DNA from: Eledone cirrhosa
Taxonomy: Eukaryota
Reading direction: 5' to 3'
DNA length: 64,000 nucleotides
Assembly (NCBI GenBank): GCA_964016885.1
Contig: CAXHJY010000462.1
Location: 164,963 to 228,962 of the forward strand
Within the stretch, counting starts at the first letter, position 1, and the number at the start of each line of letters is the position of its first letter. The translations under genes and the position numbers were made by a program. This document shows, piece by piece, positions 1 through 63,226 of the stretch. Below the pieces are notes generated by a model. It had not been told where the DNA came from, ran no database searches, and was given only the letters and a program-made list of their open reading frames with translations.

Positions 1-271
1 CTAATAAGCTAGAAACTAGTTCATCGTTCCTTTGTCAGTGATGACCAAAAGGGCAACGATGGTTGCAGAACACTGTACGGCTTAATTGGGGCTCTCTGTT
101 TACAAACAAACCGAACGTTATAATAAATGTTCGGTAAACCCATATGTACATATATATATATATATGTGCATGTATGTATCTATATACATACTACTGTACT
201 ATGTGTTCATGTATGTATGTATATACATACTACTGTACGTCTGTATACATATATGTATGTACGTATACATA

Positions 272-275
<4 letters not shown>
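1..275 (+). mobile_element. Dispersed, diverged copy of HHR-bearing repeat family A, truncated by the window edge and ending in (TA)n
   Basis: Bases 1-28 ctaataagcta-GAAA-ctagT-T-catcgtt match the 3' half of the HHR in the 29002-29982 array. Downstream sequence aligns with 41256-41480 and with the array unit. Confidence 0.75.
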
Positions 276-12284: not shown

Positions 12285-12475
12285 GATTGGCAGTATCGGT
12301 AGAGGGTTCGGCGCCATGCTTTGCAGCATGGAGTTACGGGCCTTTACGATCTAAGTTCAAATCCCGCCGAGGTTAAATTTGCCTTTCATCCTTACGGGGT
12401 CGATAAAATAAAGAACCAGTAATGCACTGGGATAATTGCCGGCCTTGTGCCAAAAGTAGAAACAATTATTTATTT
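12285..12475 (+). mobile_element. tRNA-derived SINE (main family)
   Basis: attggcagtatcggtagag...agttcaaatcccgccgaggttaaatttgcctttcatcc...ggccttgtgccaaaagtagaaacaattatt. Confidence 0.85.
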
Positions 12476-12584
12476 AACTGCTACTACTACTACTACTACT
12501 ACTACTGCTGCTGCTACTACTGCTACCACTACTGCTTTTATTACTACTGCTGCTACTACTGCTACTACTACTACTAATAATAAT

Positions 12585-12767
12585 AATAATTGTTTCTAAT
12601 TTTGGCACAAGGCCAGCAATAAACCAGTACATTACTGGTACTTTATTTTATCGACCCTGTAAGGATGAAAGGCAAAGTCAACCTCGGCGGGATTTGAACT
12701 CAGATCGTAAAGGGACGTAACTATGTTGGAAAGCATGGCTTCCGACCCTCTACCGATACTGCCAATC
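12585..12767 (-). mobile_element. tRNA-derived SINE (main family), inverted relative to 12285-12475
   Basis: Reverse complement of the same consensus, with a (TAA)n tail. Confidence 0.85.
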
Positions 12768-14245
12768 AATAATAATAATGATAATCATAATAATAATAAT
12801 AATAATAATGATTTCTTTATTAACCACAAGGGTTTACATAAAGTAGACATTAAGGACAGTGCAGGACAATACAGGACGGTACAAATGGGCATTTCTGCGT
12901 GTAAAAAACAAAAACAGAGGATGTAACAAAAAAAATAACAATGAAAAATTCCCCAATAGCGGGGAGACTTCGGAGGGACATTTGTGGAGAAAGCCAATTA
13001 AAAGGCCACAGTGACCCTGACCACCAAGGCAAGTGACTTCTCCCAGTTTTCCACCTTTAATTTACAGACACATACTCAGAGTAGACCCATTCACTCGGGC
13101 CATTCTTGCTTCTCTCACCCATCTTTCAACAAAATGATGGGAAGAGAGCACTTCCCTCTCTACTCTGATTTTCCTTTTAAAATGAAATTTGAAAAAGTCA
13201 ATCAGGGCATCACCGAAGAGGTAAGTGCTCGTCTTCAGCCATTTCAAACGTGTCCACCATACTATCTCTTTCGCCATGGCCACCAGACAGATAAAAACTG
13301 CCTGCCCTTCGCGGCTAAAGGAAGAGGGCGGGGCAGTCCTCACGATGGACTCAGCTGATAGCCGGATCCGTCCTACACCCGACAGAAGGTGTTCGACATA
13401 AACCCACAAGTCAGCGATGCTCGGACACTGGACGAGTGCATGCAGGACGGTTTCGTCGCCCTGCGCGCATCTCGGACATCCCGAACTGGCAAAGCTCCTC
13501 GGTAGCACTGCCATCCCAGGGATTTCTGGAAATTGTCCATAGGCCCCGGCCCGAAAGTTCTTCGGAAGTGATTGGCTAGTTGATTTTCGTCGACACCTAG
13601 AGTTTCCCCAAGTACGTCGTTTCTCTTCCCCTCCACTAATCCTCTATAGAACGCAAAGGTGGAGTTTTCACGATCAGATTGCCCGACTGGTCGAGGACCG
13701 TGAGCGCCTGAAGACATTCCAGTCTCCAAGTGCTCCCTCTCGGTCTTCGCTTGAGCCAGGACTGCAGCTCCGTCAAAGAGACGAGCTGGGGAAAGACGCA
13801 TCTAGCAAACGGCGACCAAACCTGATCACCGTCGAGGAAGAGGTGGAGATGTCGTAGCCTGAGCGCGTGTCTGCGCATCATCACCCACGGCATGCCCAGC
13901 CCTCCACGTAGCGGGTGTTGACAGCAGATGGACCGCCTGACCATCGGAGCGCGTCCCTTCCACAAAAAGCGAAAGAGCAAACGCTCCAGTGCAGTCATGC
14001 GAGGCTTAGGACAAGGCACGACGGTCAGGCGGTAGTAGATGACGGACGCGATATACGCATTCGCCACCTCCGCTCGACCTTTCAGGGATAGCTTCCTCTC
14101 TGCCCATTTCTGGGTGAGAGAAGCCACCCTGCTCGTCCGTAATCCCGTCACAGTTTTTGTCCGTCTGGAGGTCCGGACCGAACGAGACACCTAGCAATTT
14201 AACCGGTCCGTCCGTCTAGTGCCCGACGACGCTGTTGGACGGCAT
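12765..14245 (-). mobile_element. 5'-truncated L1/Tx1-like LINE: C-terminal ORF2 (post-RT region and zinc knuckle), 3' UTR and (TTA)n tail; frameshifted
   Basis: W..RKLSLKGRAEVANAYIAS...FLWKG...GGLG motif (13636-14190) and CPRC...ETVLHALVQCP zinc knuckle (13062-13514). Same 3' UTR at 31590-31840 and 57397-57570. Confidence 0.85.
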
Positions 14246-14249
14246 GGAA

Positions 14250-15400
14250 TAAAAATAGCATGAGAGAAGTAAAAAGTTTCATTCTATCTTGAAGGAGATC
14301 AAAAAATATGCTACTGATCTCATGATTGATACCCAGGCTGGACTGACTAAAGAAACTGTTGCGACTGATGCTACTAGGCACATAAAATCACTGGCAAAAG
14401 CAAAAGGGCAAGGACAATTAGCATCAATTTGGGAGCAGAAACCTCTGCATGGCAAATATGTGGCCCGTAGCAAACAAGCTGATGTTGACCAAAAGCACAG
14501 CCATCAATGGCTACGTAGTTCAGGGCTAAAGGCGGAGAGTGAAGGCTTCATCTTAGCTGCCCAAGATCAAAGCTTATTGACTCGTAGTTACCAGGCCAAT
14601 GTGATGAGAAACAGAATAAACCCAAAGTTCCGATTCTGCAATGCTGAGGTTGAAACGGTGGATCACTTAGTCTTTGGATGTAAAGTTTTAGCACCAGTAG
14701 AATACAAATATAGACATGAGAGTGTTGGCCAATATCTACACTGGGTAATAAGTCGGCATTACAAAATCAAAGCTGAAGACAAGTGGTACAATCATCACCC
14801 TGAGACTGTGACTGAAGGAGAAAAAGTAACAATTCTCTGGGACTTTCCTGTACATACTGACAGGACCATAAAAGCAAATAGACCTGACATCATTGTAAAA
14901 GATCAACATAAAAAGGTCTGTTTATTGATAGATATGAGCATCCCATGTGATCACAATATCGCGGCAAAAGAATTTGACAAGCTACGAAAATATAAAGATC
15001 TGCTTATTGAAATTGAGAAAATGTGGCACCTCAAGGCCCTTACAATACCAGTGATTGTGGGAGGACTGGGAATGATCAAGAAAGCAACAGAACAAGATTT
15101 GCGAATGATTCCTGGTTTACCCTCTTTGCACGAGATGCAAAAAATTGTTTTGACTGGTACTGCGCACGTATTGAGTAGAGCACTATCTCTGTAAGATTGA
15201 TATCCCTCCTTGTATTTACATATGAATATGCACATGTGTATATATGTATACTGTTTTTTTTGTTTTTGTTTTTTAATTATATTCAATGTGCTGTATTAAC
15301 TGGCTTACCAATGCACACTGTGAATTTATTTGCCCTAGGTGTCAGGAAGACACTCGTCATATATCGCAGAAACAATAATGAAAGAAAATAAAAACAATAA
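14250..15400 (+). mobile_element. 5'-truncated R4/Dong-like non-LTR retrotransposon; ORF 14289-15194 has a degenerate CCHC and a restriction-like endonuclease
   Basis: KPLHGKY, AAQDQSL.TR, (C)RFC..ETVDHLV.GC, KWY.H.PE, ILWDF...RPDI...IDMSIP...K..KY.DL and PVIVGGLG are typical RLE-clade C-terminal motifs. Confidence 0.85.
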
Positions 15401-22845: not shown

Positions 22846-23473
22846 ACTACAATAATGGTACCCATAACTTCATCAGGCACATCTATCATCCACTTTATAA
22901 TTACGCCTCCATACTCAAGACGGGTTTAACATACATCATTTCTGAAAGCTCAAATGTACTTATATACTTTCGTGTTATCTAGATAGGGTCACATCTTGTA
23001 ACTCTAGGGATTATAACTTTTCCAAGCTTTCCCCGGTTAGTTTCAAAGCAAAAATAATTTTAATTCCGAAATATTTGTAGGCTAATTTACATTTTTCTCA
23101 TTTTCTCTCGTCATTTGTCTCGTTATATTTGTCACATGATCTAACAGATGATATGACAAAAGAAACAAAAAAAAATACAAAAAAAACATAGCTTGCACAA
23201 TGTTGATGACATACTTATTTGCAACGAATTATCGCGTAAACCAATCTTAATTAATAAGTCCTGCTCCTATATAGACCACATTTTCACCGTGTTCATGTAT
23301 CATTAAAATCACACATAAACACGCACAAACACACAACTATATATTTACTCACACACACACATACATAAATGTATATATATATATATATATATATATAAAT
23401 ACACATATATATATATATATATAAATACACATATAGATACGTATACATACATATATAAACGTATATATACAAT

Positions 23474-23556
<83 letters not shown>

Positions 23557-23819
23557 TATGTGTGTGTATTGTATATATACGTTTATATATGTATGTATAC
23601 GTATCTATATGTGCATTTATATATATATATATAAATATTATATCTGCGTGTATTATTAAATTTACGATATCATGTCTCTCTCTTTCTCTTTCTCTGTCTC
23701 TTCTAACCCTCTCTTTCATTCTCTCTCTCAATATATATATATATGTACATGTATATATATATATATATGCGTTTATATGTGTGTGTATATATATATATAT
23801 ATATACACACACATATAAA

Positions 23820-23900
<81 letters not shown>

Positions 23901-24017
23901 ATATTGAGAGAGAGAATGAAAGAGAAGGGGAGAAGAGACAGAGAGAGAGAAAGAGAGAGACATGATATCGTAAATTTAATAATACACGCATACATATATA
24001 TATTTTATATATGTGCA

Positions 24018-24198
<181 letters not shown>

Positions 24199-24651
24199 TT
24201 TACGTGCAAGTGTACTAAATGATGGCTAAGTGTTATCGGAATATATAATTATATGTCTAGACGTATTTTTAGATGTTTCCTTATGAATGTGTAAATAATG
24301 TTTGATTCACTTGAATGCGTGGCTGTATGTGTAGGTTTGTTTGTTTCAACGTTTCCGTGCGTGTGCACGCACGCGTGTGTGTGCGTGAGAGTGTATTTGT
24401 GTGTGTGCGTGAGAGTGTATATTTATATGGTTGTAAGAGTTAGTCCACCTATGCAGATTGATATATTGTGTCAAATTATCAAATACCGGAGAATTTCTAG
24501 CCGACTATTGCATTCTGATATCGCTAAGCTCATATATACACAGAGGGACATACATACAAGAGTGCGCGTACAAGCACACACACACACACGTATATATTTT
24601 TTCGTATAATCATCATCATCGTCAACATTTTCATAAGTATTACACTCACGA

Positions 24652-25499: not shown

Positions 25500-25900
25500 A
25501 ACACAGAAAGTGTGGTAAGGAACCAGGTTGACCATAACGCAACAGAGTACGCAATACTTAGGATAGTATAGTGGGTAATAGGAAAAGAGTCAGGACACCA
25601 ACAGTTGATCTCCTGCCGTTGCGACAGTTAGATCCAAACTAAACCAGTACTAGTAGGACGGCAGGTACATTGCTGAACTCATCAAGGGGTACAGTCTATA
25701 TATGGGCATGCAATCAAGACAGAGTAGATGTATCAAATCAAACGTGACAGACAAGAAAAACAACAACTTTTAGGGTTGTTTCATTTGATACAGCTACGCT
25801 GTCTTGATTGCATGCCCATATATGAACTGTACCCCTTGATAAGTTCAGCTAGCTGTCGTCGGCCGTAGCACAGCCGTCGATGTCCTGACTGTTTTCCTAT
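25500..25900. mobile_element. TA-flanked non-coding element (family E) with an internal inverted duplication and a degenerate HHR
   Basis: Arms 25672-25738 and 25783-25849 are reverse complements. 25500-25625 is homologous (inverted) to 49032-49152. Confidence 0.65.
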
Positions 25901-26159: not shown

Positions 26160-26265
26160 TCATCAGCCTCTTCGCGGATGACCACAATAGAGTATTTACC
26201 CAACATTTCAACAGCATGTAGTAACTGACCAAATATATCGTCAACCATACACAATTAGGTATAAA

Positions 26266-26268
<3 letters not shown>
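26160..26268 (-). mobile_element. Fragment of HHR family B
   Basis: Aligns with 27262-27367. Confidence 0.75.
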
Positions 26269-26354
<86 letters not shown>

Positions 26355-27117
26355 AAAGAATAGAGGTGTAACACACAAGTTATTATATATTGGTAAACGG
26401 AATAGAAAATGCTGACAAATTGTTCACAGTTATCCGTTTTTGTTGGCATTTTCTGTATCTCTTGTGAGGATATGATAGTTAAAAGAATAGAGGTGTAAAT
26501 ACAAATACAGAATAGAGGTGTAAATACAGATACAGAAAATGCCAACAAAAACGGATAACTGTGAACAATTTGGATAAAGAAGAGAAAAGAAGTCCAACAC
26601 GTATTGCACATTATTCCTTCATCGTGACAGAACAAGTAAATAGATTACTAATCACGTGCAATGGGGCGGCCCTGCGTTTTTCTGAACACCTGAACCAACT
26701 TTTGGGTCCACTCTGCATGCATAAATTATTACTTAGTAAGCATACATACTTAGGAACTTTATTATGCTAGAACATAACATCTTACACAACGTAATACGCA
26801 CGCGTGAAGACACACACACACATATACAATCACAACATATGGGCACATATCCAACTTGTTCATACATCCTTGCTTTCGGAAAATTTCTTTTTGTCGTCGG
26901 TTATCTCATCGCTGCCGACAATCTACCAACCCTCCGGCGGATTCTGTTTGAAACAGCCTGAATTTTACTACACCTTTCGTATCTCCAACTGATCCATCTA
27001 TATTATCTAAAATAAAAATGTATTATGTTTTCATTCTAACACATTATTATGTTTGTATGATGTCCTTTACACATAATGGTGTCTGTGTGTGTGTATATAT
27101 AAATATATATATATATA

Positions 27118-27744
27118 TCATAAATCATGTCCCTAGAATTATTAGATGAAATATATACTATTTCCTCTCCCAATTAGCATAATTAACCATATAAAAAATC
27201 AATTTGACCAGGCTATAAGAATAATGGCTCCTATGAAGAAATATTTGATAAATAACCGAAAGCAGCCTCTTCGCGGTTGACCACAATAGAGTATTTACCC
27301 AACATTTCAACAGCATGTAGAAACTGACCAAATATACCGTCAACCATACACAATTAGGTATAAAATTAAAATTAGAAGAAATGCGTACATACCGTAATTA
27401 TATCCCTACCATGGTTTCGTTCGTATTTTGAGATATCCTATTAAGGATAAATCTCGAGTATCGAACTCATCAGGAGACAAACTCAATAGGACAGTTAATT
27501 TTTCCAAAGCGATCCCGCCAGAAGTAGATTTTAAAAATGGCTAAGAATCGTGACGTGGCAGTGGTCAAGTTAGAAAGAATGTGATTAGTTGCTTACGGCG
27601 AGTAGGCTGGTTGCTAGAAAGCGCAGCCCAATATCGCCCAAATTGCATCTCAACCCAACGGGAGATTATTAAATATAAAGATTTACATATACATAAAGTC
27701 ACAGATATATATGTGGCAACCGTTCACAATGTGGCTCAATGAAG

Positions 27745-27750
<6 letters not shown>
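27118..27750 (-). mobile_element. HHR-bearing non-coding element, family B (about 630 bp, in (TA)n)
   Basis: Homologous to 38690-39320. No ORF, flanked by TA tracts, contains a canonical HHR. Confidence 0.8.
27401..27479 (-). ncRNA. Type I hammerhead ribozyme with a canonical core
   Basis: Minus strand: tgtctc-CTGATGA-gttcg...cgaac-GAAA-ccatgg-T-A-gggata. Stem I 6 bp, extended stem II, palindromic ACCAUGGU stem III, GUA site. Confidence 0.85.

Positions 27751-27804
<54 letters not shown>

Positions 27805-28451: not shown

Positions 28452-28454
<3 letters not shown>
28326..28454 (-). mobile_element. 3' tip of an RTE-like LINE (same family as 46584-46922)
   Basis: LTYVDALRTDTGLLETQDMVTMVRDRDRWRELVYGSREFHPP*. 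Confidence 0.8.
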
Positions 28455-28487
<33 letters not shown>

Positions 28488-28726
28488 GTAAGTATGCATG
28501 TATACGTACATACATATATGTATACAGACGTACAGTAGCATGCACATATATATATATATATACATATATATATACATATGCATACAGGTACACATACATA
28601 TATGCACGTATCAGTTTAGCGGCGCTAACGTCGCTTTGTTCGTTTGTAAACAAACTGAACAGCCTGAATTTATGCCATACGGTGTTAAGGCAACCACGTC
28701 ACCTTTTTGTTCAACACTGACACAGG

Positions 28727-28771
28727 AACGATGTACTAGTTTCAAGCTTGTTAGCTATCATCAGAACCGTT
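28727..28771 (-). ncRNA. Type I hammerhead ribozyme (inverted monomer; core-proximal stem I mismatch)
   Basis: Minus strand aacggtt-CTGATGA-tagctaacaagctt-GAAA-ctag-T-A-catcgtt. Confidence 0.7.
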
Positions 28772-29001
28772 TACCCCTCTGCCAGATAGTTGAACGTTCG
28801 AAAGTATATACTTTCCTTATGAAAATTAACGGCTGAGCAGCCTAATTTGCATATTGAGTGAGTTAAATCGGTCAGGCATACCGAAAACGATAAATTGAAA
28901 CAAAATGAAAACGAAATTTCATTTCTCACTCTTAGTATGGCACTTACTTTTCATAAGGAAAGTATATACTTTCGAACGTTCAACTATCTGGCAGATGGGT
29001 A

Positions 29002-29046
29002 AACGGTGCTGATGATAGCTAACAAGCTTGAAACTAGTACATCGTT
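29002..29046 (+). ncRNA. Minimal type I hammerhead ribozyme, unit 1
   Basis: aacggtg-CTGATGA-t-agct-aaca-agct-t-GAAA-ctag-T-A-catcgtt. 7-bp stem I, 4-bp stem II closed by U-U, palindromic ACUAGU stem III, GUA cleavage after 29039. Confidence 0.85.
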
Positions 29047-29467
29047 CCTGTGTCAGTGTTGAACAAAAAGGTGACGTGGTTGCCTTAACACCGTATGGCA
29101 TAAATTCAGGCTGTTCAGTTTGTTTACAAACGAACAAAGCGACGTTAGCGCCGCTAAACTGATACGTGCATATATGTATGTGTACCTGTATGCATATGTA
29201 TATATATATGTATATATATATATATATGTGCATGCTACTGTACGTCTGTATACATATATGTATGTACGTATACATGCATACTTACATTTAAGTAAGTGCC
29301 ATACTAAGAGTGAGAAATGAAATTTCGTTTTCATTTTGTTTCAATTTATCGTTTTCGGTATGCCTGACCGATTTAACTCACTCAATATGCAAATTAGGCT
29401 GCTCAGCCGTTAATTTTCATAAGGATAGTATATACTTTCGAACGTTCAACTATCTGGCAGATGGGTA

Positions 29468-29512
29468 AACGGTGCTGATGATAGCTAACAAGCTTGAAAC
29501 TAGTACATCGTT
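29468..29512 (+). ncRNA. Minimal type I hammerhead ribozyme, unit 2
   Basis: Identical to 29002-29046. Predicted cleavage after 29505. Confidence 0.85.
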
Positions 29513-29937
29513 CCTGTGTCAGTGTTGAACAAAAAGGTGACGTGGTTGCCTTAACACCGTATGGCATAAATTCAGGCTGTTCAGTTTGTTTACAAACGAA
29601 CAAAGCGACGTTAGCGCCGCTAAACTGATACGTGCATATATGTATGTGTACCTGTATGCATATGTATATATATATGTATATATATATATATATATATGTG
29701 CATGCTACTGTACGTCTGTATACATATATGTATGTACGTATACATGCATACTTACATTTAAGTAAGTGCCATACTAAGAGTGAGAAATGAAATTTCGTTT
29801 TCATTTTGTTTCAATTTATCGTTTTCGGTATGCCTGACCGATTTAACTCACTCAATATGCAAATTAGGCTGCTCAGCCGTTAATTTTCATAAGGAAAGTA
29901 TATACTTTCGAACGTTCAACTATCTGGCAGATGGGTA

Positions 29938-29982
29938 AACGGTGCTGATGATAGCTAACAAGCTTGAAACTAGTACATCGTT
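29938..29982 (+). ncRNA. Minimal type I hammerhead ribozyme, unit 3
   Basis: Identical to 29002-29046. Predicted cleavage after 29975. Confidence 0.85.
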
Positions 29983-30280
29983 CCTGTGTCATTGTTGAAC
30001 AAAAATGTGACGTGGTTGCCTTAACACCGTATGGCATAAATTCAGGCTGTTCAGTTTGTTTACAAACGAACAAAGCGACGTTAGCGCCGCTAAACTGATA
30101 CGTGCATATATGTATGTGTACCTGTATGCATATGTATATATATATGTATATATATATATATGTGCATGCTACTGTACGTCTGTATACATATATGTATGTA
30201 CGTATACATGCATACTTACATTTAAGTAAGTGCCATACTAAGAGTGAGAAATGAAATTTCGTTTTCATTTTGTTTCAATT

Positions 30281-30316
<36 letters not shown>

Positions 30317-30374
30317 TGTAATAAAATAAATACAGATTATCTATAGTAACTATCTTCTGTTTATTATTATTATT

Positions 30375-31917: not shown

Positions 31918-32415
31918 TTCTTTGAGTCTTAGTCAGTGATGTTATTTAACTGGAAAGTTTGTTGAAATGAATATCAAGCCGCTACCTGTAGCCTCAGATA
32001 TTCAGGACGTATCGGAGGGTTCTTGCTGTTCCCAGCAAGCATGCCTTTTGAAGTGTTCCAAAAAGCGGGGCTGGAGTAACTTTCTTTAACCATCCTTGGA
32101 AACTCTTTGAGATAGAACCTAGTGCGCCTATGGCAATCGGGACGACTCTGACTTCATGGCAGTTCCAAATCCTTTTTACCTCCCACTTTAAGTCCTGGTA
32201 TCGGTTAATTTTCTCCCTCTCATCTTCTTGCACTCTCGTGTCAAATGGGCAGGCTACATCTACAATCAGGCACGATCTTTTTTTCCTTGTCCAAAACCAC
32301 CAGGTCAGGCCTATTGTGTTCCAGTTTCTTATCCGTCTGTATCCTAAAATCCAATAGCACCTTCACCTGATCGTTTTTTATCAGTGACTCTTGCTTATGC
32401 TCATACCACAATTGT
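31918..32415 (-). mobile_element. R4/Dong-like non-LTR 3' fragment (RLE domain) abutting (TAA)n
   Basis: WYEHKQES..VLLDFRIQTD..NRPDLVV..IVDVACPFD..EKINRYQDL..VVPIAIGALG...LGTARTLRYVL*. Confidence 0.85.
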
Positions 32416-34066: not shown

Positions 34067-34937
34067 AATGGCAATTTCTGTCTGTTTGTGTGTGTTTGTT
34101 TGTGGATTTGTTTGTGTGTTTGTTTGTGGACCTGAAACTCAAAAACTACCAGACCGATCTTGATGAAAGTTGCCACGCGTGTGGTTCTCATGTCTATTTG
34201 ATTTCTTACATATATTTTATTTTAATGAAAGGTTCTTCCGGGCGCTCAAACCCCTGTTGAAAACCCTCCTTGAAAATTTTCTCCCTTCCATTTATATGAA
34301 ATTTTAACCATAGGTAAAGGGCAAGATATGATGCTTATTCACAAAATTTCAGTAATATTAAGACACTCTAATGGGAGTTAAACCCCCTATCTATATACAT
34401 AAATGGCAATTTCTATCTGTTTGTGTGTTTGTTTGTTTGTGGATTTGTTTGTGAACCTAAAACTCAAAAACTACCAAACCGATCTTGATGAAACTTGACA
34501 CGTGTGTGGGGCTCATGCTCATTTCATTTCTTACGTACTTTGAAGTTCAAAAAAGTCGATAATTTCCAGTCTGCATCGCTTTTTTAAAAATGAATAGGAC
34601 ATTTGTATGCAAATGCTCATATGAATGTTATTTTCTGCCATAACTTTTATAGCTCTCAACCAATTCCCTTTAAACTTGAAACACAGATAGATTATGTGCT
34701 AAGGATGGCTTTTTGCTAAGGAGAATTATCCAGACCACTCGAGTAAAGCGTAAGCTGATTTTTTATTAACTGATGAGCGAAATTTGACTTCAGCTGTTGT
34801 GGGCTTAAAATATTCTCCATAAATCAACTTAATATTCTCTGCTTGCTGTAACATTTATGTTTGGTCTGAGAGGCATTGGGCATTTAATGGGAGCTGGGAA
34901 TACCCCCGCTCCCGGGTATTACCCGGTACCTCAGCTA
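34058..34937 (+). mobile_element. Non-autonomous Helitron-like element (34390-34937) preceded by a duplicated 5' portion (34058-34389)
   Basis: TC start (tctatatacataaatggc), (TTTG)n-like internal repeat and aaactacca.accgatcttgatgaaa motif. 3' GC hairpin ccgggtattacccgg is followed by ..cagCTA(T). Confidence 0.65.
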
Positions 34938-36416
34938 TATATATATATATACCTCAGCTATATATATATATATATATATAGCTGAGGTACCGGGTAATAC
35001 CCGGGAGCGGGGGTATTCCCAGCTCCCATTAAATGCCCAATGCCTCTCAGACCAAACATAAATGTTACAGCAAGCAGAGAATATTAAGTTGATTTATGGA
35101 GAATATTTTAAGCCCACAATATATATATATATATATAGTGCCACGTTAAAATACACACTACATACACCGTAGATCGTTTGTCGTTAGTATGATGGAGCCG
35201 CAATAATTACGTTTCAACATATATTTTGACCGACTGTTTATTCATCTTCCTCTCTCGATAACCTCAATCTTTCACTTGTTCCTTTATTCCGTGAATCATC
35301 GATTCCTTTATACTTTCAACCTGTCATTCTTTCCAACTATTTTACATACTTTTTCCGTTGATTTGATATTTGGATTTATGGATTCGATATAGAGTCATAA
35401 CAAATAATTTGCTGTATTCAGTAAAGTCCCTTTTCCTTCTGAGTTTAAACTCCCCCCAATGTCAGCGTTGTCTATCATGTTTGAGGTTCGATGAAGTAAA
35501 GTCCTGGGATCAATTCAATCAATGTTCGTCTCACCCCAAAACGTTGACCCCTGACTGAAATTAAAATATATAAATTATTCATTCTGTCGTGCACGTAGTA
35601 TGTCACAGGTGTTCGAAAGCCCAATTCGATATCATTAGTGCTTTGGTATAATTCCTCTTGATGAATTGTTGGACAAGGGGCGTGTACCATTGACCCGGGT
35701 CGACTTGAGGCTTGTGCAAGAAATTAGGTAGATAGAACTGTAGATAGAGTGTCGGGAAGACTGTACCAGTAATTGAAAAAGGCCACTTTTATCATACATT
35801 CTTTCACGCTGGAATTTCCTGAGAGATACAAAAAGCTTACAATTGTCTGTCGAAGTATCAGCAGCCACTTGCATGTTAATTTCACAAGCAGGCATTTCTG
35901 ACACACACCCAGAGATGGAGAGTTGAAATCGCGGAATAGATAAGGAAAGAGGGGAAAAGGATGGGAGAGAGAATTGAAGAAAGTAGAGTGAGAACGAGTA
36001 TAAGGACGCTGTAGAAGACTTTTGAAAAAATAGTTGGAGGGGTTGTAGGATCAAATTAAAATGATTAAAAGAAAATGGAAGGGGAAGGATACAAGGAAAA
36101 AGGAGAGGAGTCATGCAACAAAGTATATCATCTTTTAGTGGTGGGGGGAGGGGCTTAAAGTAAAGGGTTATGTTGGTAGTTACGATTTAACGCTTCCTTC
36201 CCCCATTTCTAATACAACACTATGATATTTAAATAATTTTGAAAATCATCAGGAATTTGGAGTGATTTAGTAACATAACTAACCCCCTCATGATTCAGTT
36301 GGGTTTGACATAAAATTATGATAGATTGCTTTTAGATAAACATTTTTATCCATTCATTACCATAAATATAACAGAGACACTGCCTTTGATTTTGAAATGA
36401 TTTTTCAAATAATCAA

Positions 36417-38377: not shown

Positions 38378-38572
38378 CGTTTATGTAAGATCTGTGACTT
38401 GGTCGGTATGAGATGAGGCTACTAAGCCTATGTATACTTAAGAAAATACTATATATTTTCAACCGTTCTTGCAGGGATATACAGTCCTGATATATGTATA
38501 TATAAATATGTGTGTGTATATATGTGTGTTTGTGTGCATGTGCATACTTACATTTATATATATATAACAACA

Positions 38573-38689
<117 letters not shown>

Positions 38690-39604
38690 CTATAAAATAT
38701 GTCCATAGAATCATTTGCTAATATATATACACCCTTTCCTCTCCCAATTAGCATAATTAACCACACAAAAATTCAATTATACCAGGCTTTAAGATTAAAA
38801 GAAATAGTAGATAAATAGACGACAGCAATCTCTTCGCGGCCAACCGCCATAGAAATTTAGCCAACATTTCAACAGCATGTAGAAATCGATTAAATATACA
38901 GTCAACCATATAAAATTAAAGTTAGAAGAAATGCATATACACATACCAGGATTATGTTTCTACCCTCGGGTTTCGTTTGCATTTGGAAATATCCTATTAA
39001 GGATAAAATCTCGAGCTTCGAACTCATCAGGAAACAAACTCGTTAGGACAGATTATTTTCTTAAATGATCCACGTCAGAAACGAATTCAAAATGGCTAAT
39101 AATTGTGACGTGGCAGTGGTCAAGTCAGATATAATGTGATTGGTTGCTTACGGCGAGTGGGCTGGTTGCTAGAAAGCGCAGACCAATATTGCCCAAATTG
39201 CATCTAAACCTCATGGAAGATTATTAAATATAAAGATTTACATATACACAAACTAGACAAAGTCACAGATATATATATATGTGTTTTGGCAACCATTCAC
39301 GATGTGGCTCAATGATGAATTAATAAATTAAATAATCAGAGCAATATACTATAAAGTATGTCCATAGAATCATTTGATAATATATATACACCATTTCCTC
39401 TCCCAATTAGCATAATTATCCACACAAAAAATTAATTAGACCAGGCTATAAGATTAAAAGGCACCTATGAAGAAATAGTAGATAAATAAACGACAGCAAT
39501 CTCTTCGCGGCCAACCGCCATAGAACACAACATTTCAACAGCACGTGGAAATCGATTAAATATACCGTCAACCATACACAATTAGGTATAATTAGGTATA
39601 AAAT
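38690..39604 (-). mobile_element. HHR family B, about 1.4 head-to-tail units (period about 659 bp)
   Basis: gtccatagaatcatttg at 38701 and 39360. Homologous to 27118-27750. Confidence 0.8.
38955..39036 (-). ncRNA. Type I hammerhead ribozyme with a canonical core
   Basis: Minus strand tgtttc-CTGATGA-gttcg...caaac-GAAA-cccgaggg-T-A-gaaaca. Stem I is perfectly Watson-Crick. Confidence 0.8.
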
Positions 39605-39627
39605 GTCTTTGGATAAAAATAACAGGA

Positions 39628-39830
39628 CCTGTTATTTTTATCCAAAGACATTTTTTTCAGATTACAACCCACTCGTGCCTTCAATCTATTTTATTTCTCA
39701 TTCCTTCTTCTGATGAAGGACTAGCGTCTGAAACGTTAAGACGTTGTTCCTGCTATTTCAAGCGTTAACCTAATATATTCCTCACATATACTGTACCGAT
39801 TGTGTTGTTATTTCAGTTTACCTTTTACAC
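39628..39830 (+). mobile_element. Family C element with a minimal HHR at 39706-39741
   Basis: tctt-CTGATGA-aggactagcgtct-GAAA-cg-T-T-aaga. Homologous to 575-765. Confidence 0.7.
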
Positions 39831-39906
39831 ACAAACACACATATATACATACACACACGCACTCACAAACACACACACAGATATATATATATATACACAA
39901 ACACAA

Positions 39907-40189: not shown

Positions 40190-40760
40190 TTCTGAGTTGG
40201 TCGTGAGGGCAGCATCCTCCTCAAACAACCTTTCCAGCGACTCTGTCAGTAGCAAACATCTCTATCTGATCCAGCTGGATCCCAAAGCGTGACCAGCCAA
40301 GCTCACGGATGTTATCTAACAATCTTGCTCGGGGTCTACCTCTGGGTCTCTTGCTGGTTGGTTTTGCCTGTAGAATCTGTCGAGCGATTCTTTCCTGATG
40401 CATTCTAACATGCTCATAGTATCGGATCTGTGATCTCTTAATCCAGAGAAGTAGCGGTTCTACCAGGAGTGAGGGTCTGATCCCTGAGCTCAGCCCTTTA
40501 TCGAGTAACGTTACTCCAAAGACCCTTCGGAGGAATCCCATTTCTGCCGTTTCTATCTGCAATTCATGAGCCTCGGTAAGGGTTGGCAGAAATACCAGGA
40601 AGATAGCGAGTTTGGCTTTTACACCTACGTCCCTTCTTCCGATTACTGAGTGCTAAAGCTGGCGCATTAATTCAGCCTCCTACCTTTCATCACTCGTGAA
40701 CATGGCCCTGGGATACTTGAACTTCTCCAGCTGCTTCAGTGGAACTCCATTCACATGTAT
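40190..40760 (-). mobile_element. RTE-clade LINE 3' fragment
   Basis: NGVPLKQLEKFKY...IETAEMGFLRRVFGVTLLDK...RM..ERIARQIL...KRPRGRPR.R.LD. Confidence 0.8.
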
Positions 40761-41239: not shown

Positions 41240-41531
41240 CAGTTTATAATGAGAACTAATAAGCTAGAAACTAGTTCATCGTTCCTTTGTCAGTGTTGAA
41301 CAAAATGGCAACGATGGTTGCCGACCACTGTACGGCTAATAATTCGGGTGTTTGTTTACAAAACAAACAAACCGAGCATTATAATAAATGTTCGGTAAAC
41401 CCATAGTACATATATATATGTATGTATATACATACAACTGTACTTCTGTATTCATATATGTATGTAGTTATTCATACTTATATTTAAGTATCAACCGTAC
41501 TAAGAGTTAGAAATGAAATTTCATTTTTTCC

Positions 41532-41534
<3 letters not shown>
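41240..41534 (+). mobile_element. Diverged family A copy with a decayed HHR core
   Basis: ATAATGA-gaactaataagcta-GAAA-ctagT-T-catcgtt. Collinear with 1-275 and with the array unit through tactaagagt.agaaatgaaatttc. Confidence 0.75.
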
Positions 41535-41599
<65 letters not shown>

Positions 41600-41848
41600 A
41601 ATGGAAAAAATGAAATTTCATTTCTAAAGGTATGTATATCTCCTCTGATAATTTGAAATATTTTTTTACATAGATCTTTAATATGATATACATACCAACG
41701 CACATATATATATATCCCAGAAACGATCGTAAAATGATGATTTTTTTCAATATAAGGAACCTGTTCTTTGTTTTTATTTCATTGTTTTTATTAATTTATC
41801 ATGACTCTATTTTCCTATGATTTTATCGTTAAATTTTGATAGATTTAT

Positions 41849-43832: not shown

Positions 43833-44818
43833 TACACGACGAGATTCTGCAGTATTAATCCACCTAATTCCCCTCACATGTCGTCGGCCAACGCCTGTCT
43901 ATATTAGAACAGCCCGTGGAAAGAGTCTGAACTATTTTTTAACCACACAGATATTCCTGCATAAAACATTTAACAGAATTTCATTTTTTCAGTGATATTT
44001 CTATGTAGATGTCTCGGCATATCTTCAAAATGTCCGTTGTTGCATTTCTCTATCTCGAGATTTTGGTGTATCGTTCAGCTGATGTACAATTGTGTATAAA
44101 TGCATATATATATATATATTATAAAGTTGACGGCTGTGGCTGGACAAAAAATCAGCAAATTTGCACCATAGATGTAACTTTTTCCAAGAAAGTGAGGTTA
44201 TTTTTATCTTCTAAATTTCGTTAAAAGATTAAAGATATTTTATTGTTTATTTAAATATTCACTTCTTTAAAATGTTCAAATATAAACACTTCTGCTTATA
44301 CAACATTCCTCTCTCTTTTTTAGTCTGTCTTTTTAGATAGATACATAGCTATAACGTCGCACGCTTATAATATCTGTCTGTCTGACTGCCTGTCTGCATT
44401 GACGTCGCTTCTAACCAACTTTTAATTAATTCAGTGCAAAGATACCGTACACCCTCTCAATAATTAATTATATATATATAATTAGTAATAATAATAAATG
44501 TGAAGACTAAAATCCAAAGAGGGCTCGATAAGGATAAATATATTTCAAATATATAAGAACCCTAGAGCAAATATTGTTCTCATTGCTGACGTATTATCTT
44601 CGCTTTTTTCCCGTTCATTGCCAGGGAACGTCTTCACGAACCAAAGTATCGTCTTCCTGTTTTCCTTCGGTTGCAACGTTTTTCGAAATATTTAGTTCTG
44701 CGTTCACAGATTGATGTTTTTAGTTTCAGAAGATCCCGTTAAGGATGAAAGCAACGATTCTTTGCTTAAACTTTAATCTGTTATTTTAATGTATGTATAT
44801 ATATATATATATATAGAA

Positions 44819-45720
44819 ACAGAGATGAAATCGAACATGCAACTGGAGTCTTATTTTTTTTTTAAATATATATATTTATTTGGTTCCTTTACCGGTTTCG
44901 CAGTTCTTCTGCTTTTCAAAAGTAGAGTTGAGATGGATGGTCTGTGGTTTTTCTCACATCTGGTTGGTCTCTGAATGTTACTTGTTTTATATGGAAAAAG
45001 TGGCTCGAAATGCCAGGTTTTTCGAGAAGTAATTTGATTGGTTGGTCAATATTTATAACAAATTTCGCGCCAGTTCGCGTTACAATTTCTGACACCCCAG
45101 CGAACTAACCATATTCACTGAACCAGAACAATTCTCCCATCCCATTTCTCTTGACCATTATCTTTTACTTATCATAAAATTCTCTAAAAAGGCTACAGAA
45201 TGGATTTCCAAATAAGGGCGCGAAAATTTAATGAAAACTTGTTATCGTGACAGCCATCATTTCATTTATAACCAATCAAAAAAAAAAAAAAAAAAAAAAA
45301 AAAAAAGCCTTCGTGACCCCTTTTTTCAAGTAAAAACAAATTCAAACACTCATATATATAAAAAAACAACCTGTGACAACCCCCCCCCTCTTATTTGAAG
45401 AACTATTGTAACGTGAACTGGCGCGAAATTTATTATAATTATTGACCAACCAATCAAATTACTTCTCGAAAAACCTGGCATTTCGAGCCACTTTTTCCAT
45501 ATAAAACAAGTAACATTCAGAGACCAACCAGATGTGAGAAAAACCACAGACCCTCCATCTCAACTCTACTTTTGAAAAGCAGAAGAACTGCGAAACCGGT
45601 AAAGGAACCAAATAAATATATATATATTTTTTTAAAATAAGACTCCAGTTGCATTTTCGATTTCATCTCTTTTTCTTTATACTTTCACTCGTGTAGGACA
45701 CCTCGGTTATTTTTCAATTT
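44819..45720. mobile_element. Element with about 265-bp inverted arms (44819-45085, 45406-45670), each carrying an HHR-like motif (family D)
   Basis: Arms are near-perfect reverse complements. tactt-TTGAAAA-gcag-aagaa-ctgc-GAAA-ccgg-T-A-aagga at 45567-45606 (+) and 44885-44924 (-), followed by AATAAA. Confidence 0.75.
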
Positions 45721-46585: not shown

Positions 46586-47539
46586 AGGGGGGATAAAATT
46601 CCCGAGATCCATGGATGAGTTCTCTCCAGCGGTCTCTATCCCTCATTATCGCTGCCATGACCTGCGTCTCCAACAGACCAGTGTCTGCCCTTAGGGCATC
46701 AACATACGTTAACCTTGGTCTTCCTCTTTCAGTGTGTCCATGTAGGAGCTCCCACAGGAGCACTGAGTGCAGTGTCAACTCTGGATGTCGGTGAGCATGT
46801 CCAGCTCACCTCAGTCTCCGCTGTGTCACATTTGAGCTGACTTTTGGGAGGCTCCCATACAGCTCTGAGTTTTTCATCCTCAGTGTATATTGATTAATGT
46901 TCAGAGCCATCCTCAGCATTCTACTGATGGAATGACAGAGTTCTTTGAGATACTGGCTGGAGTGCTCCAGGGAGGTACATTGGCTCCCTACCTTTTTATC
47001 ATCGTAGTGGACAATTGTATGCGCCTTGCACTGGAGAAACACCAGGACTCTGGCTTTACTGTAACACCGGCTCAAAGTAGGAGAGTTAAGGCGAAAAAGG
47101 TATCGGATGCGGAATTTGCCGACGAAATAGTTCTGGTGACAAATACAGTGAAGGAGGCAGATGATTTGAGGTAGGAGGTTGAAACTCTTTCGATGAGTGG
47201 GGCTGAGAATGAATGAGACTAAGACAAAAGATCTGGTAGAGAATGTTGAGAAGCCAGAGGGGATTACTAATGTAGGCGGGAAGCCGCTAGAATTGGTTGA
47301 GGACTTCCTGTATTTGGGAGCAAAGAGTGGGAATACGGAAGATGTTGTGGTTGAGAGGAATAGCAAAGCGTGGGCGGCGTGCCACAGCTTGAGATCGGTG
47401 TGGAAGTCGCACCTTCGTAAAGACCTGAAAATCTGCCTCTTCATGGCTGTAGTGGAGTCTGTGCTGCTGTACGGGTCTGAGACTTCGACACTGACCAAGA
47501 AACTCACTCAGATGGTGGATGGGTGCTACACGAGAATGC
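46584..47539. mobile_element. RTE-like LINE split into an inverted pair: 3' end on minus (46584-46922) and RT domain on plus (46918-47539)
   Basis: Plus: GVLQGGTLAPYLFIIVVD..FADEI..GLRMNETKT..DFLYLG..ESVLLYGSET..GCYTRM. Minus continues RMLRMALN..RRLRLAGH..GRPRLTYVD..RDRWR. Confidence 0.9.
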
Positions 47540-47576
47540 ATATATATATATGCAGGATAGTGCCTATGTACGGACA

Positions 47577-47614
<38 letters not shown>

Positions 47615-47744
47615 AAAGCAAAAAGGGTATTTAATTTGTTGGTAATTCAACAAATATATATATTTATAACTGATTCGAGGCACTCGACAGATTTCTGGGG
47701 TATAATATGATTTTATAAATATAGTTTCCATTTATTAATATTAT

Positions 47745-47796
<52 letters not shown>

Positions 47797-47883
47797 ATGA
47801 GCAAAGTTCACAGTTAGACACGAACACTGAAAAAACATTCATGCATAAACATCCATATATAAATATATGGATGTGTATATATT

Positions 47884-47929
<46 letters not shown>

Positions 47930-48244
47930 TATATACACTCGTGTATGTGTGTTTATGCATGAATGTTTTTCAGTGTTCGTGTCTAACTGTGAACTTTGCT
48001 CTACTATAGACATGTAGCAGCAGACGCTGCAGCATCATCATCATCAACATCATCATCGGCAGCAACAGTAGCAGTGGTGGTAGTAGTAGTAGTAGTAGTT
48101 GTTGTTGTTGTTGTTGTAGCTGGTGTTGGTGTTGTAGCTGGTGTTGGTGTTTGTATGTTGTCATGATACGTGCGTTAGAAACAGCAAGAGCATTAGCTGC
48201 AGGTTTTATGTTGAAAGAAGTACTAGTAGTGGTAGCAGCATTAA

Positions 48245-48968: not shown

Positions 48969-48973
<5 letters not shown>

Positions 48974-49152
48974 AACAAGTAAGACCCCGACGGCTGAGCT
49001 CAAGCCGTTTCGACGGCTAATTCTGGACGCAGAAATGGCTTGAGCTCAGCCGTCGGGGTCTTACTTGTTCCTATTACCCACTCTACAACTCTAAGTATTG
49101 AGTACTTTGGTGCGTTATGGTCCACCTGGTTCCTTACCACATTTCCTTCGTT
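48969..49152. mobile_element. Family E fragment: 43-bp fold-back in which each arm includes an HHR 3' half, within (TA)n
   Basis: Arms 48969-49011 and 49032-49074. Each reads GAAA-yggct-tgagctc-agccg-T-C-ggggt. Confidence 0.65.
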
Positions 49153-51214: not shown

Positions 51215-54530
<3,316 letters not shown>

Positions 54531-62014: not shown

Positions 62015-62809
62015 GGAGAGAGAGAAAGCGAGAAGGGGAGAGAGAGACAAACAGTCAGACAGTCAGACAGTTAGACAGCTTGATCAATAAATTGATACGT
62101 CTATCATCACTCTGTCATAGACCTTACTTAGTTAACTACTGAAAATAGCAGGCAACCCGCTGAAATCACCTCTACCTCATACTTTCCATAAGCCACACAT
62201 TGTTGACACCTCCAGTCTGACCTAATATCGAACCCGTTACACAGTAATATCACCTCTTTACCCGCATCACCTCGACCCACTAAACTACCGTTTTCACAAG
62301 CCAATGACAGAGCCTGCAGATGGTCTACTTGTCTAGCTAGTTGTAGCAAACAAATCTGTCATAAAACGGTATACCTCCATCTGGAGATGAACATTTGATT
62401 AAGTATCCAGATCTGGAACAACTCAATTAAATCACACAAATTGCTGAAAATAACAGCCATATCTCCCTCACATCATACCCTCCCTATTGTAGTCTTAGAG
62501 AAAGGAAATGCTGGTTAATGAGGTGCTGAGCTTTCCTATTATATAAGGAGGGAGAGAAGGAGAAACAGGATTATACACAACTGGAATACCTCTGATCGAG
62601 GAACGTTGACTTGGCTCAAAACAACTACAACAACAATAACTACTACTGTTACTGCTACTTTTACGATGACGGCGATTACTGTGATGACCGTGGTTACGAT
62701 TTGACATGAGCCAGACAAGTAAACCACCAACCTCTACCTACCTGACCTAACATCGTTTTCTTTTAATCTACCAAAACCAATAGCAACACCACACCACAAA
62801 CAAATACAT

Positions 62810-62874
<65 letters not shown>

Positions 62875-62951
62875 TATGTATGTATCTATATGTATATATA
62901 TTTATATATATTTATCTGGTTATTTTATTTTTTCCATTTTTCTTACTCATT

Positions 62952-63012
<61 letters not shown>

Positions 63013-63226
63013 TTTATTTGTTTGTGGTGTGGTGTTGCTATTGGTTTTGGTAGATTAAAAGAAAACATATATATATAAATATATATATGTATATACATAT
63101 ATATATACATATATATATGTATATTTGTATATACATATATATATGGTTTTGGTAGATTAAAAGAAAACATATATATATAAATATATATTATAAATATATA
63201 TATGTATATACATATATATAAATATA

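Follow-up and report, generated by a model that had tools for sequence, protein, structure and literature searches.

A retrozyme-like hammerhead repeat with a Penelope-type inverted insertion structure in Eledone cirrhosa

Within the window (the whole 64,000-nt stretch of Eledone cirrhosa DNA analyzed here), a short tandem repeat with hammerhead motifs stands head to head with an inverted copy of itself that is one unit long. By its features the locus would fall into the retrozyme/non-autonomous PLE class, combining the sequence characters of a non-LTR retrozyme with the textbook inverted structure of Penelope. We somewhat favor an origin as one young PLE-style insertion, in which a PLE enzyme would have primed both target strands and the two truncated cDNAs would have been joined by microhomology. 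Both the type of element and the inverted layout are already known.

Structure and age of the insertion

The insertion and its target comprise the following parts.

28454–28482, no strand: left (TA)n target flank, assigned by sequence; its phase overlaps the last 1–2 nt of the arm
28483–28949, minus strand: inverted arm of one unit plus 1 nt, with its 5′ and 3′ ends at site A (28949 and 28483) and no tail
28944–28951, no strand: head-to-head junction, with TT at 28948–28949 and a 5/6 match over 28944–28949
28948–30283, plus strand: direct array of ~2.86 units, 5′-truncated at unit position 125
28959–28972, no strand: perfect 14-bp palindrome holding TATATA (unit positions 136–149), present in each unit
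30281–30317, no strand: right (TA)n target flank

The whole insertion, one reversed unit and ~2.86 forward units, sits inside (TA)n, which flanks it on both sides and is absent between arm and array, that is, at the junction. The unit is 466 nt long with a GC content of ~0.36 and no LTR/PBS/PPT layout, and its coding potential is confined to minus-strand stop-to-stop frames of 120–135 aa through the TA tract. The direct array (tandem-repeat period 470, 2.9 copies, 98%) extends from unit position 125 (28948) to position 60 (30283); it is made up of a 342-nt first piece, two full units (d1, 470 nt, and d2, 464 nt, whose length difference is due solely to the TA run), and 60 nt from a fourth. The TATA palindrome, in which one base is changed in the second unit, is a possible basal promoter.

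The reverse complement of the arm (467 nt) aligns end to end with 29290–29760. Read on the minus strand, the arm starts with AAGTAAGTGCC and ends with CTTACATTTA. In the direct unit these two sequences adjoin between 29289 and 29290, a point that we call site A. This alignment confirmed the original prediction that the arm is one full circularly permuted unit, within ~2 nt per end: the arm exceeds the unit by 1 base, the outermost 2 nt could equally belong to the (TA)n flank, and the TT at the inner end is common to the array, so that "exactly one turn" holds to that precision. As also predicted, the arm opens at a point (A) that differs both from the array start (position 125) and from the predicted ribozyme cut, which follows 29039 (unit position 216). 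The junction had been said to share only TT; the TT at 28948–28949 is indeed exact, and an imperfect 5/6 match (TTACTT vs TTAATT) accompanies it.

The arm is 98.5–98.7% identical to the direct units. Private substitutions number two in the arm, one in the second unit, and two in the third, 5 in total over ~1800 nt; because this amounts to only ~0.28%, all pieces are taken to be of a single young age. The private change of the second unit is missing from nearly all family reads. As a separate observation, all five private substitutions in 28483–30283 are transversions, four of them between G and T, while about half of the substitutions across the family are transitions; this bias may reflect copying errors, damage, or consensus errors. 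The family itself is very abundant (4472 contigs of run X1, 3741 contigs of another run from that sample, and 118,980 reads of run X22 match a 401-nt query), and its members diverge by 1–10%.

The abundance of the family, together with several inverted duplications around (TA)n elsewhere in the window, brings up two separate insertions into a shared (TA)n tract, or an inverted duplication that later copied part of the array at the DNA level, as ways to obtain the same arrangement. Either would be very improbable: no (TA)n separates arm and array, the units are equally young (0.28%) against the 1–10% found among family members, and the window inversions centered on (TA)n are tail-to-tail rather than head-to-head.

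Outer ends at two fixed sites

The features below define the outer ends of the family.

29279–29298, plus strand: 7-bp hairpin with site A in its loop (predicted −6.3 kcal/mol)
30224–30283, plus strand: 60-nt stretch between site A and site B, found at the direct end alone and resembling a Penelope-type tail
1–272, plus strand: diverged relative (73%) that the window start cuts off; it ends 2–6 nt short of A and runs into (TA)n
38518–38556, plus strand: short fragment ending at site A exactly as the arm does, followed by (TA)n; a weak family member (38 nt, E 5.8e-4)
41249–41537, plus strand: diverged relative (~78% over its best stretch), ending at site B and running into (TA)n

At each outer boundary of the insertion lies a 3′ end of the element: that of the arm at site A, that of the array 60 nt further on at site B. 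Sites A and B, which lie ~60 nt apart, each consist of ATTTA followed by (TA)n. Across the window, 5/5 family 3′ ends fall at site A (3) or site B (2) and all run into (TA)n, a count that excludes three weak BLAST matches (41607–41625, 52688–52792, and 26952–26965), which are short or of low complexity. The end of the extension at site B matches the end of the older copy at 41249–41537, where the extension is ~52 nt; that copy is 5′-truncated inside its hammerhead core, and a 7-bp hairpin is predicted at the same place in it (−4.6 kcal/mol). In the comparison with reads and contigs, which masked 3′ ends at site A, loose ends turning into AT repeats were found at site B in 1 contig of run X8. 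They were also found at 29330, alongside other continuations, in 17 contigs of X1 and in 25 of X2.

The outer ends are therefore not free permutation points: the 3′ ends are fixed at A and B, and the array start at position 125 is a 5′ truncation. The original prediction had taken the different permutation points within one insertion as a sign of a circular template. That step is not supported: the 3′ ends are fixed (5/5), and the variable ends are ordinary 5′ truncations, for which a linear multimeric transcript accounts equally well. It had also been proposed that fixed ends shared by all copies would speak against a circle; 3′ ends share fixed sites in all five cases in the window, which is half of that pattern, and 5′ ends vary.

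Hammerhead motifs and RNA potential

Four type I hammerhead motifs were located in the insertion.

29002–29046, plus strand: motif 1, with CUGAUGA at 29009, GAAA at 29030, and a predicted cut after GUA at 29039
29468–29512, plus strand: motif 2, core at 29475
29938–29982, plus strand: motif 3, core at 29945
28727–28771, minus strand: motif of the arm, with the core-adjacent pair of stem I broken

A pattern and pairing check found an intact core and a 7-bp stem I in the three consecutive motifs of the direct array (29009, 29475, and 29945); motif 1 pairs with a 7-bp stem I, a 4-bp stem II, and a short palindromic helix III. An Rfam scan at the gathering score returned 0 matches in the window. 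Metazoan type I hammerheads are reported to work as dimers (PMC4209133). When two cores were co-folded, the minimum-energy form, a predicted fold only, was not a dimeric hammerhead.

The motif of the arm is the sole copy on the minus strand of the locus and carries a private G>T in the core-adjacent pair of stem I, so that U-C replaces G-C. Of the predicted hammerheads on both strands, a motif is thus present on each strand, and the minus-strand ribozyme is probably impaired or weak. The anticipated dsRNA of ~460 bp likewise survives as a prediction: a transcript of 28483–29760 would form a 464-bp helix between the arm and the second unit (347 bp for the nearest inverted pairing). Double-stranded RNA and two-strand ribozymes are potentials of the sequence only, and sequencing runs on record as RNA hold a 0.04 share of the query words.

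Head-to-head junctions elsewhere in the family

Reads or contigs of 4 of the 24 listed runs were compared with 29236–29636 (401 nt). Run X22 consists of reduced-representation raw reads from another individual in another study. Among the 15 of 86 X22 joints listed, 13 change strand, and a head-to-head geometry accounts for 12; the microhomology reported for them equals the prediction in 11 and is within 1 nt of it in the other. The thirteenth was ruled out as a chimera at the library cut site AATT. A further 29 joints near repeats were dropped, nine joint rows (eight of X22 and one of X1, most without a stated orientation) were left uncounted, and the visible breakpoints are those that the reduced-representation library permits. 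Each head-to-head joint is supported by 44–119 reads from 1–4 start places; since the reads come from so few start places, each joint probably represents one locus, and any single one of them may be a PCR jackpot. Microhomology at these junctions is 0–4 nt and reaches at least 2 nt in 6/12, compared with 18% for the background (p ~0.013). The original view of the locus as a reverse-transcribed hammerhead repeat with the layout of inverted Penelope pLTRs, a layout described in PMC8557442, PMC3846280, and PMC2377424, thus gained 12 further junctions of the same kind.

Several candidate termini were rejected. The X22 read pile-ups at 29321, 29343, 29395, 29412, and 29572 each lie on one of the five AATT sites of the unit, and the loose ends at 29324–29326 and 29568–29569 (~57,000 and 26,000 reads) are also on AATT and of library origin; we attribute the pile-ups to library cut sites and ligation chimeras because they stand on AATT and the reads start beside CATG, presumably the sites of the enzymes used. 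Joints 29320–29572 and 29320–29412 were dropped as AATT library artefacts, and joint 29444–29532 proved to be a skip rather than an inversion.

The 24 breakpoints of the 12 joints are scattered, and 0/24 fall 5 nt or less from A, B, or the ribozyme cut. Four of the 24 lie 8–14 nt inside site A (unit positions 8, 9, 13, and 14). Twelve fall in 29416–29552, and 10 of these are 21–46 nt downstream of the TATA palindrome, a count in which 7 of the 10 possibly reflect size selection. Both clusters, just inside A and past the palindrome, are leads only. The 5′ breakpoints of other copies cluster at 29450–29486, 21–57 nt downstream of the palindrome, and the start of the older copy at 41249 corresponds to ~29478. 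Transcription of a linear RNA may begin in the interval 29450–29486, a reading that size selection of the library confounds.

In the frame of the reads, the junction of the present locus would read 29290/29416. It rests on the assembly (28948–28949), is absent among the 15 of 86 joints listed, and is spanned by no piece in the rows listed, as would be seen if it were a fold-back artefact of assembly or library preparation. Such an artefact would hardly have given the arm two substitutions of its own relative to every direct unit, nor an outer end at a natural terminus of the family, and the 12 like junctions were found in independent raw reads away from library cut sites; we regard it as extremely improbable.

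The one-turn arm and the RNA template

With the 3′ end fixed at A, the chance that a 5′ end falls within 2 nt of A is 1.1% for this one landmark and 6.3% when two 5′ ends and three landmarks are considered. Site A (position 1) is 1 of 39 unit positions that give 2 exact nt with the end of the array and 1 of only 5 that also give the 5/6 match. The microhomology there makes a stop at A more probable than computed, and the very many copies of the family give ample occasion for noticing such a case. The array cDNA in the same insertion ran past site A twice. Only the return of the inner end of the arm to site A is special at this locus, and it was not repeated in the 24 other breakpoints.

One explanation of this length is a one-turn stop on circular RNA, in which reverse transcription primed at A on a 466-nt circle would have halted at its own primer. 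It would account for an arm that matches one unit within 2 nt (~1.1% by chance for one landmark) and reads through the ribozyme site, and for the finding that none of the 24 other breakpoints is at the cut site, as expected of a template that has no cleaved 5′ end; the four breakpoints 8–14 nt short of A keep this reading alive, and retrozyme circRNAs and multimeric cDNA made from circles are in print (PMC7229834, PMC7761336, PMC4209133). It has more difficulty with the second cDNA of the insertion, which passed A twice without stopping, and with the 0/24 breakpoints within 5 nt of A, and its statistical appeal drops to a chance of ~6% once two ends and three landmarks are allowed. Moreover, the dominant in vitro template of the PLE studied is uncleaved linear RNA (PMC11167929), 10 of the 12 breakpoints in 29416–29552 fit a linear transcript start 21–46 nt past the TATA palindrome (in part confounded by size selection), and the runs on record as RNA, at a word share of 0.04, include none shown to contain the unit. 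On balance we consider a one-turn stop on a circle unlikely. The exact one-turn length is suggestive of a circle, no more, and a stop at A would also be expected from stalling or cutting at the A hairpin on a linear multimer. The length itself is real and likely results from a fixed start plus a chance or hairpin-guided stop, without being proof of a circular template; such a template is possible, and the locus is compatible with both a linear multimer and a circle.

A different origin of the arm would be fold-back self-priming, in which the 3′ end of the array cDNA folds back beside A, copies one unit, and is cut or joined at the next A. Self-priming has been proposed for head-to-head palindromes of PLEs (PMC3846280), the 5/6 match at the junction is available at only 5 places in the unit, and a palindrome with 27-bp arms (39600–39654) stands 5′ of another hammerhead family in the window. 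An arm copied in this way would need a 340-nt loop. The observed arm lacks the substitutions private to the second and third units, the length of its TA run is that of the first unit, its 3′ end is the site where simple non-inverted copies end, and 6/12 family junctions show no microhomology. Fold-back self-priming therefore appears quite unlikely.

A PLE-type mechanism

Our favored account, a single PLE-style insertion, would proceed as follows. A PLE endonuclease acting in trans would nick both strands of the self-complementary (TA)n. One 3′-OH would start a cDNA at the distal site B, generating the 60-nt tail, and copy 2.86 units; the other 3′-OH would start a cDNA at the proximal site A and copy one unit; and TT, within the match of 5 of 6 nt, would link the two cDNA 3′ ends. 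Unit length would then follow from a start fixed at A and a stop at the next A, reached by chance with the help of microhomology or because the enzyme stalls or cuts at this hairpin. Of this account, the ends, target, and junction type are observed, and the enzyme, the double priming, and the joining are modeled on related systems.

PLEs typically show an inverted 5′-truncated copy, a tail confined to one end, and (TA)n targets (PMC8557442; PMC2377424). A purified PLE protein has been reported to cleave and extend both target strands and to start at two internal RNA sites, located in a stem-loop, that define the tail (PMC11167929). That study found ribozyme cleavage dispensable and uncleaved linear RNA to predominate as template in vitro, with a start that did not involve target homology (PMC11167929); the ends here, by contrast, abut (TA)n at AT-rich sites. 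Retrozymes are described as related to pLTRs (10.64898/2026.07.22.740005), and non-autonomous PLEs as 5′-truncated elements with microsatellite targets (PMC9977147). Against the favored account, the tail measures 60 nt compared with 30–40 in print, and the 4/24 breakpoints near A hint at a stop short of a full turn.

An autonomous PLE for the family was not recognized among the window ORFs, read by eye, and the locus itself was rejected as one, as an RT plus GIY-YIG ORF cannot fit in 1.8 kb. By eye, the frames at 13062–15194, 31994–32362, 40221–40652, and 47197–47634 resemble decayed proteins of non-LTR retrotransposons.

Other repeats in the window

A second hammerhead family occupies 574–782 and 39600–39847 (cores at 645 and 39710, 83% alike), and its copy at 39710 is preceded by the perfect palindrome with 27-bp arms, like the 5′ palindromes at inverted junctions of PLEs. 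A third repeat family lies on the minus strand at 27094–27754 and 38666–39591, with a fragment at 26164–26268; its members are 79–82% alike and form a partial tandem of ~680 nt. By eye they hold a hammerhead-like motif with a very long stem II (~27475–27400 and 39020–38960), which minimum-energy folds lacked, and a separate hammerhead core-like match is found at 26166 on the minus strand.

Inverted duplications centered on microsatellites are present at 34797–35119, 41507–41627, 23427–24199, 12285–12767, 47799–48001, and 62755–63066. The one at 34797–35119 consists of 155-nt arms with 100% complementarity on either side of (TA)n and includes a short internal duplication; in the one at 41507–41627 the tail of the present family is duplicated tail-to-tail across (TA)n, and the weak match at 41607–41625 is part of this duplication. 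There is also an inverted pair at 44810–45086 and 45405–45681 (277 nt, 95%) with a 318-nt spacer holding poly(A), and shorter palindromic elements next to (TA)n occur at 48969–49074 and 25672–25849.

Runs X4–X7 and X9–X14, which carry nine other organism labels and one wastewater metagenome label, contain 0.20–0.39 of the query words, close to what the unit by itself would contribute; these words may stem from cross-contamination by a high-copy repeat, from close kin, or from horizontal transfer. Motif scans for other loci gave 0 matches in metagenome, genome, and viral contigs of the prokaryote and viral collections.

Comparison with known systems

L1 elements provide an analogy in twin priming, in which a cDNA is primed on each of two target strands and microhomology joins the cDNA ends, giving a 5′ inversion. 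L1 primes on poly(A) and on an arbitrary internal site, with target duplications, whereas both primers here would use fixed sites of the element and a microsatellite target.

Non-LTR retrozymes of animals resemble the present repeat as non-coding, AT-rich tandem elements of a few hundred bases with one type I hammerhead and a short palindromic helix III per unit, dispersed at high copy number in arrays of 2–3 units (PMC7229834, 10.64898/2026.07.22.740005), a likeness at the level of sequence. The words "inverted" and "opposite" are absent from the main text of PMC7229834, and "inverted" occurs in the preprint 10.64898/2026.07.22.740005 only in a reference; a head-to-head arm with a tail is therefore not described in these parts of the two sources. 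Inverted arms, fixed 3′ start sites, or unit-length arms in retrozymes were also not found among the matches listed in a literature search that mostly covered material other than subscription journals and supplements.

Insertions of EN+ PLEs (Penelope/Poseidon, Neptune, and Naiad; PMC8557442, PMC3846280, PMC2377424, PMC11167929) share with the locus a partial tandem with an inverted 5′-truncated copy, a one-end extension apparently from two 3′ start sites, a hammerhead in the repeat, a TATA-like palindrome, and a (TA)n target with no discernible target duplication. They differ in that the present unit has no RT or GIY-YIG ORF, in that its inverted copy is a whole unit, and in that its tail is 60 nt (~52 in the older copy) compared with 30–40. 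In Penelope, partial tandems with inverted repeats vary in size (PMC2377424), and the PLE tail is described as an optional 30–40 bp at one end (PMC8557442). Circular templates giving more-than-unit cDNA are a standing proposal for retrozymes (PMC7761336, PMC4209133).

The two models could also be combined, with a PLE-type enzyme priming at the fixed hairpin on circular RNA from both (TA)n strands and one cDNA stopping at a full turn or slightly before it, which we put forward as a speculative and rather doubtful scenario. If it were true, a genome-wide excess of inverted arms of 450–466 nt would be direct genomic evidence both for a circRNA transposition intermediate and for PLEs in the role of retrozyme mobilizer.

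Implications

What is new here is a retrozyme-type repeat with the full Penelope insertion signature, namely two-site 3′ ends, an inversion, and a (TA)n target. This signature offers structural support for mobilization by PLEs, for which the case made in the published texts rests on shared ribozymes and phylogeny. A single arm of exactly one turn does not answer the question of the template. The unit is short and very abundant and so supplies many junctions, which makes the choice between a circular and a linear template testable from the assembly alone.
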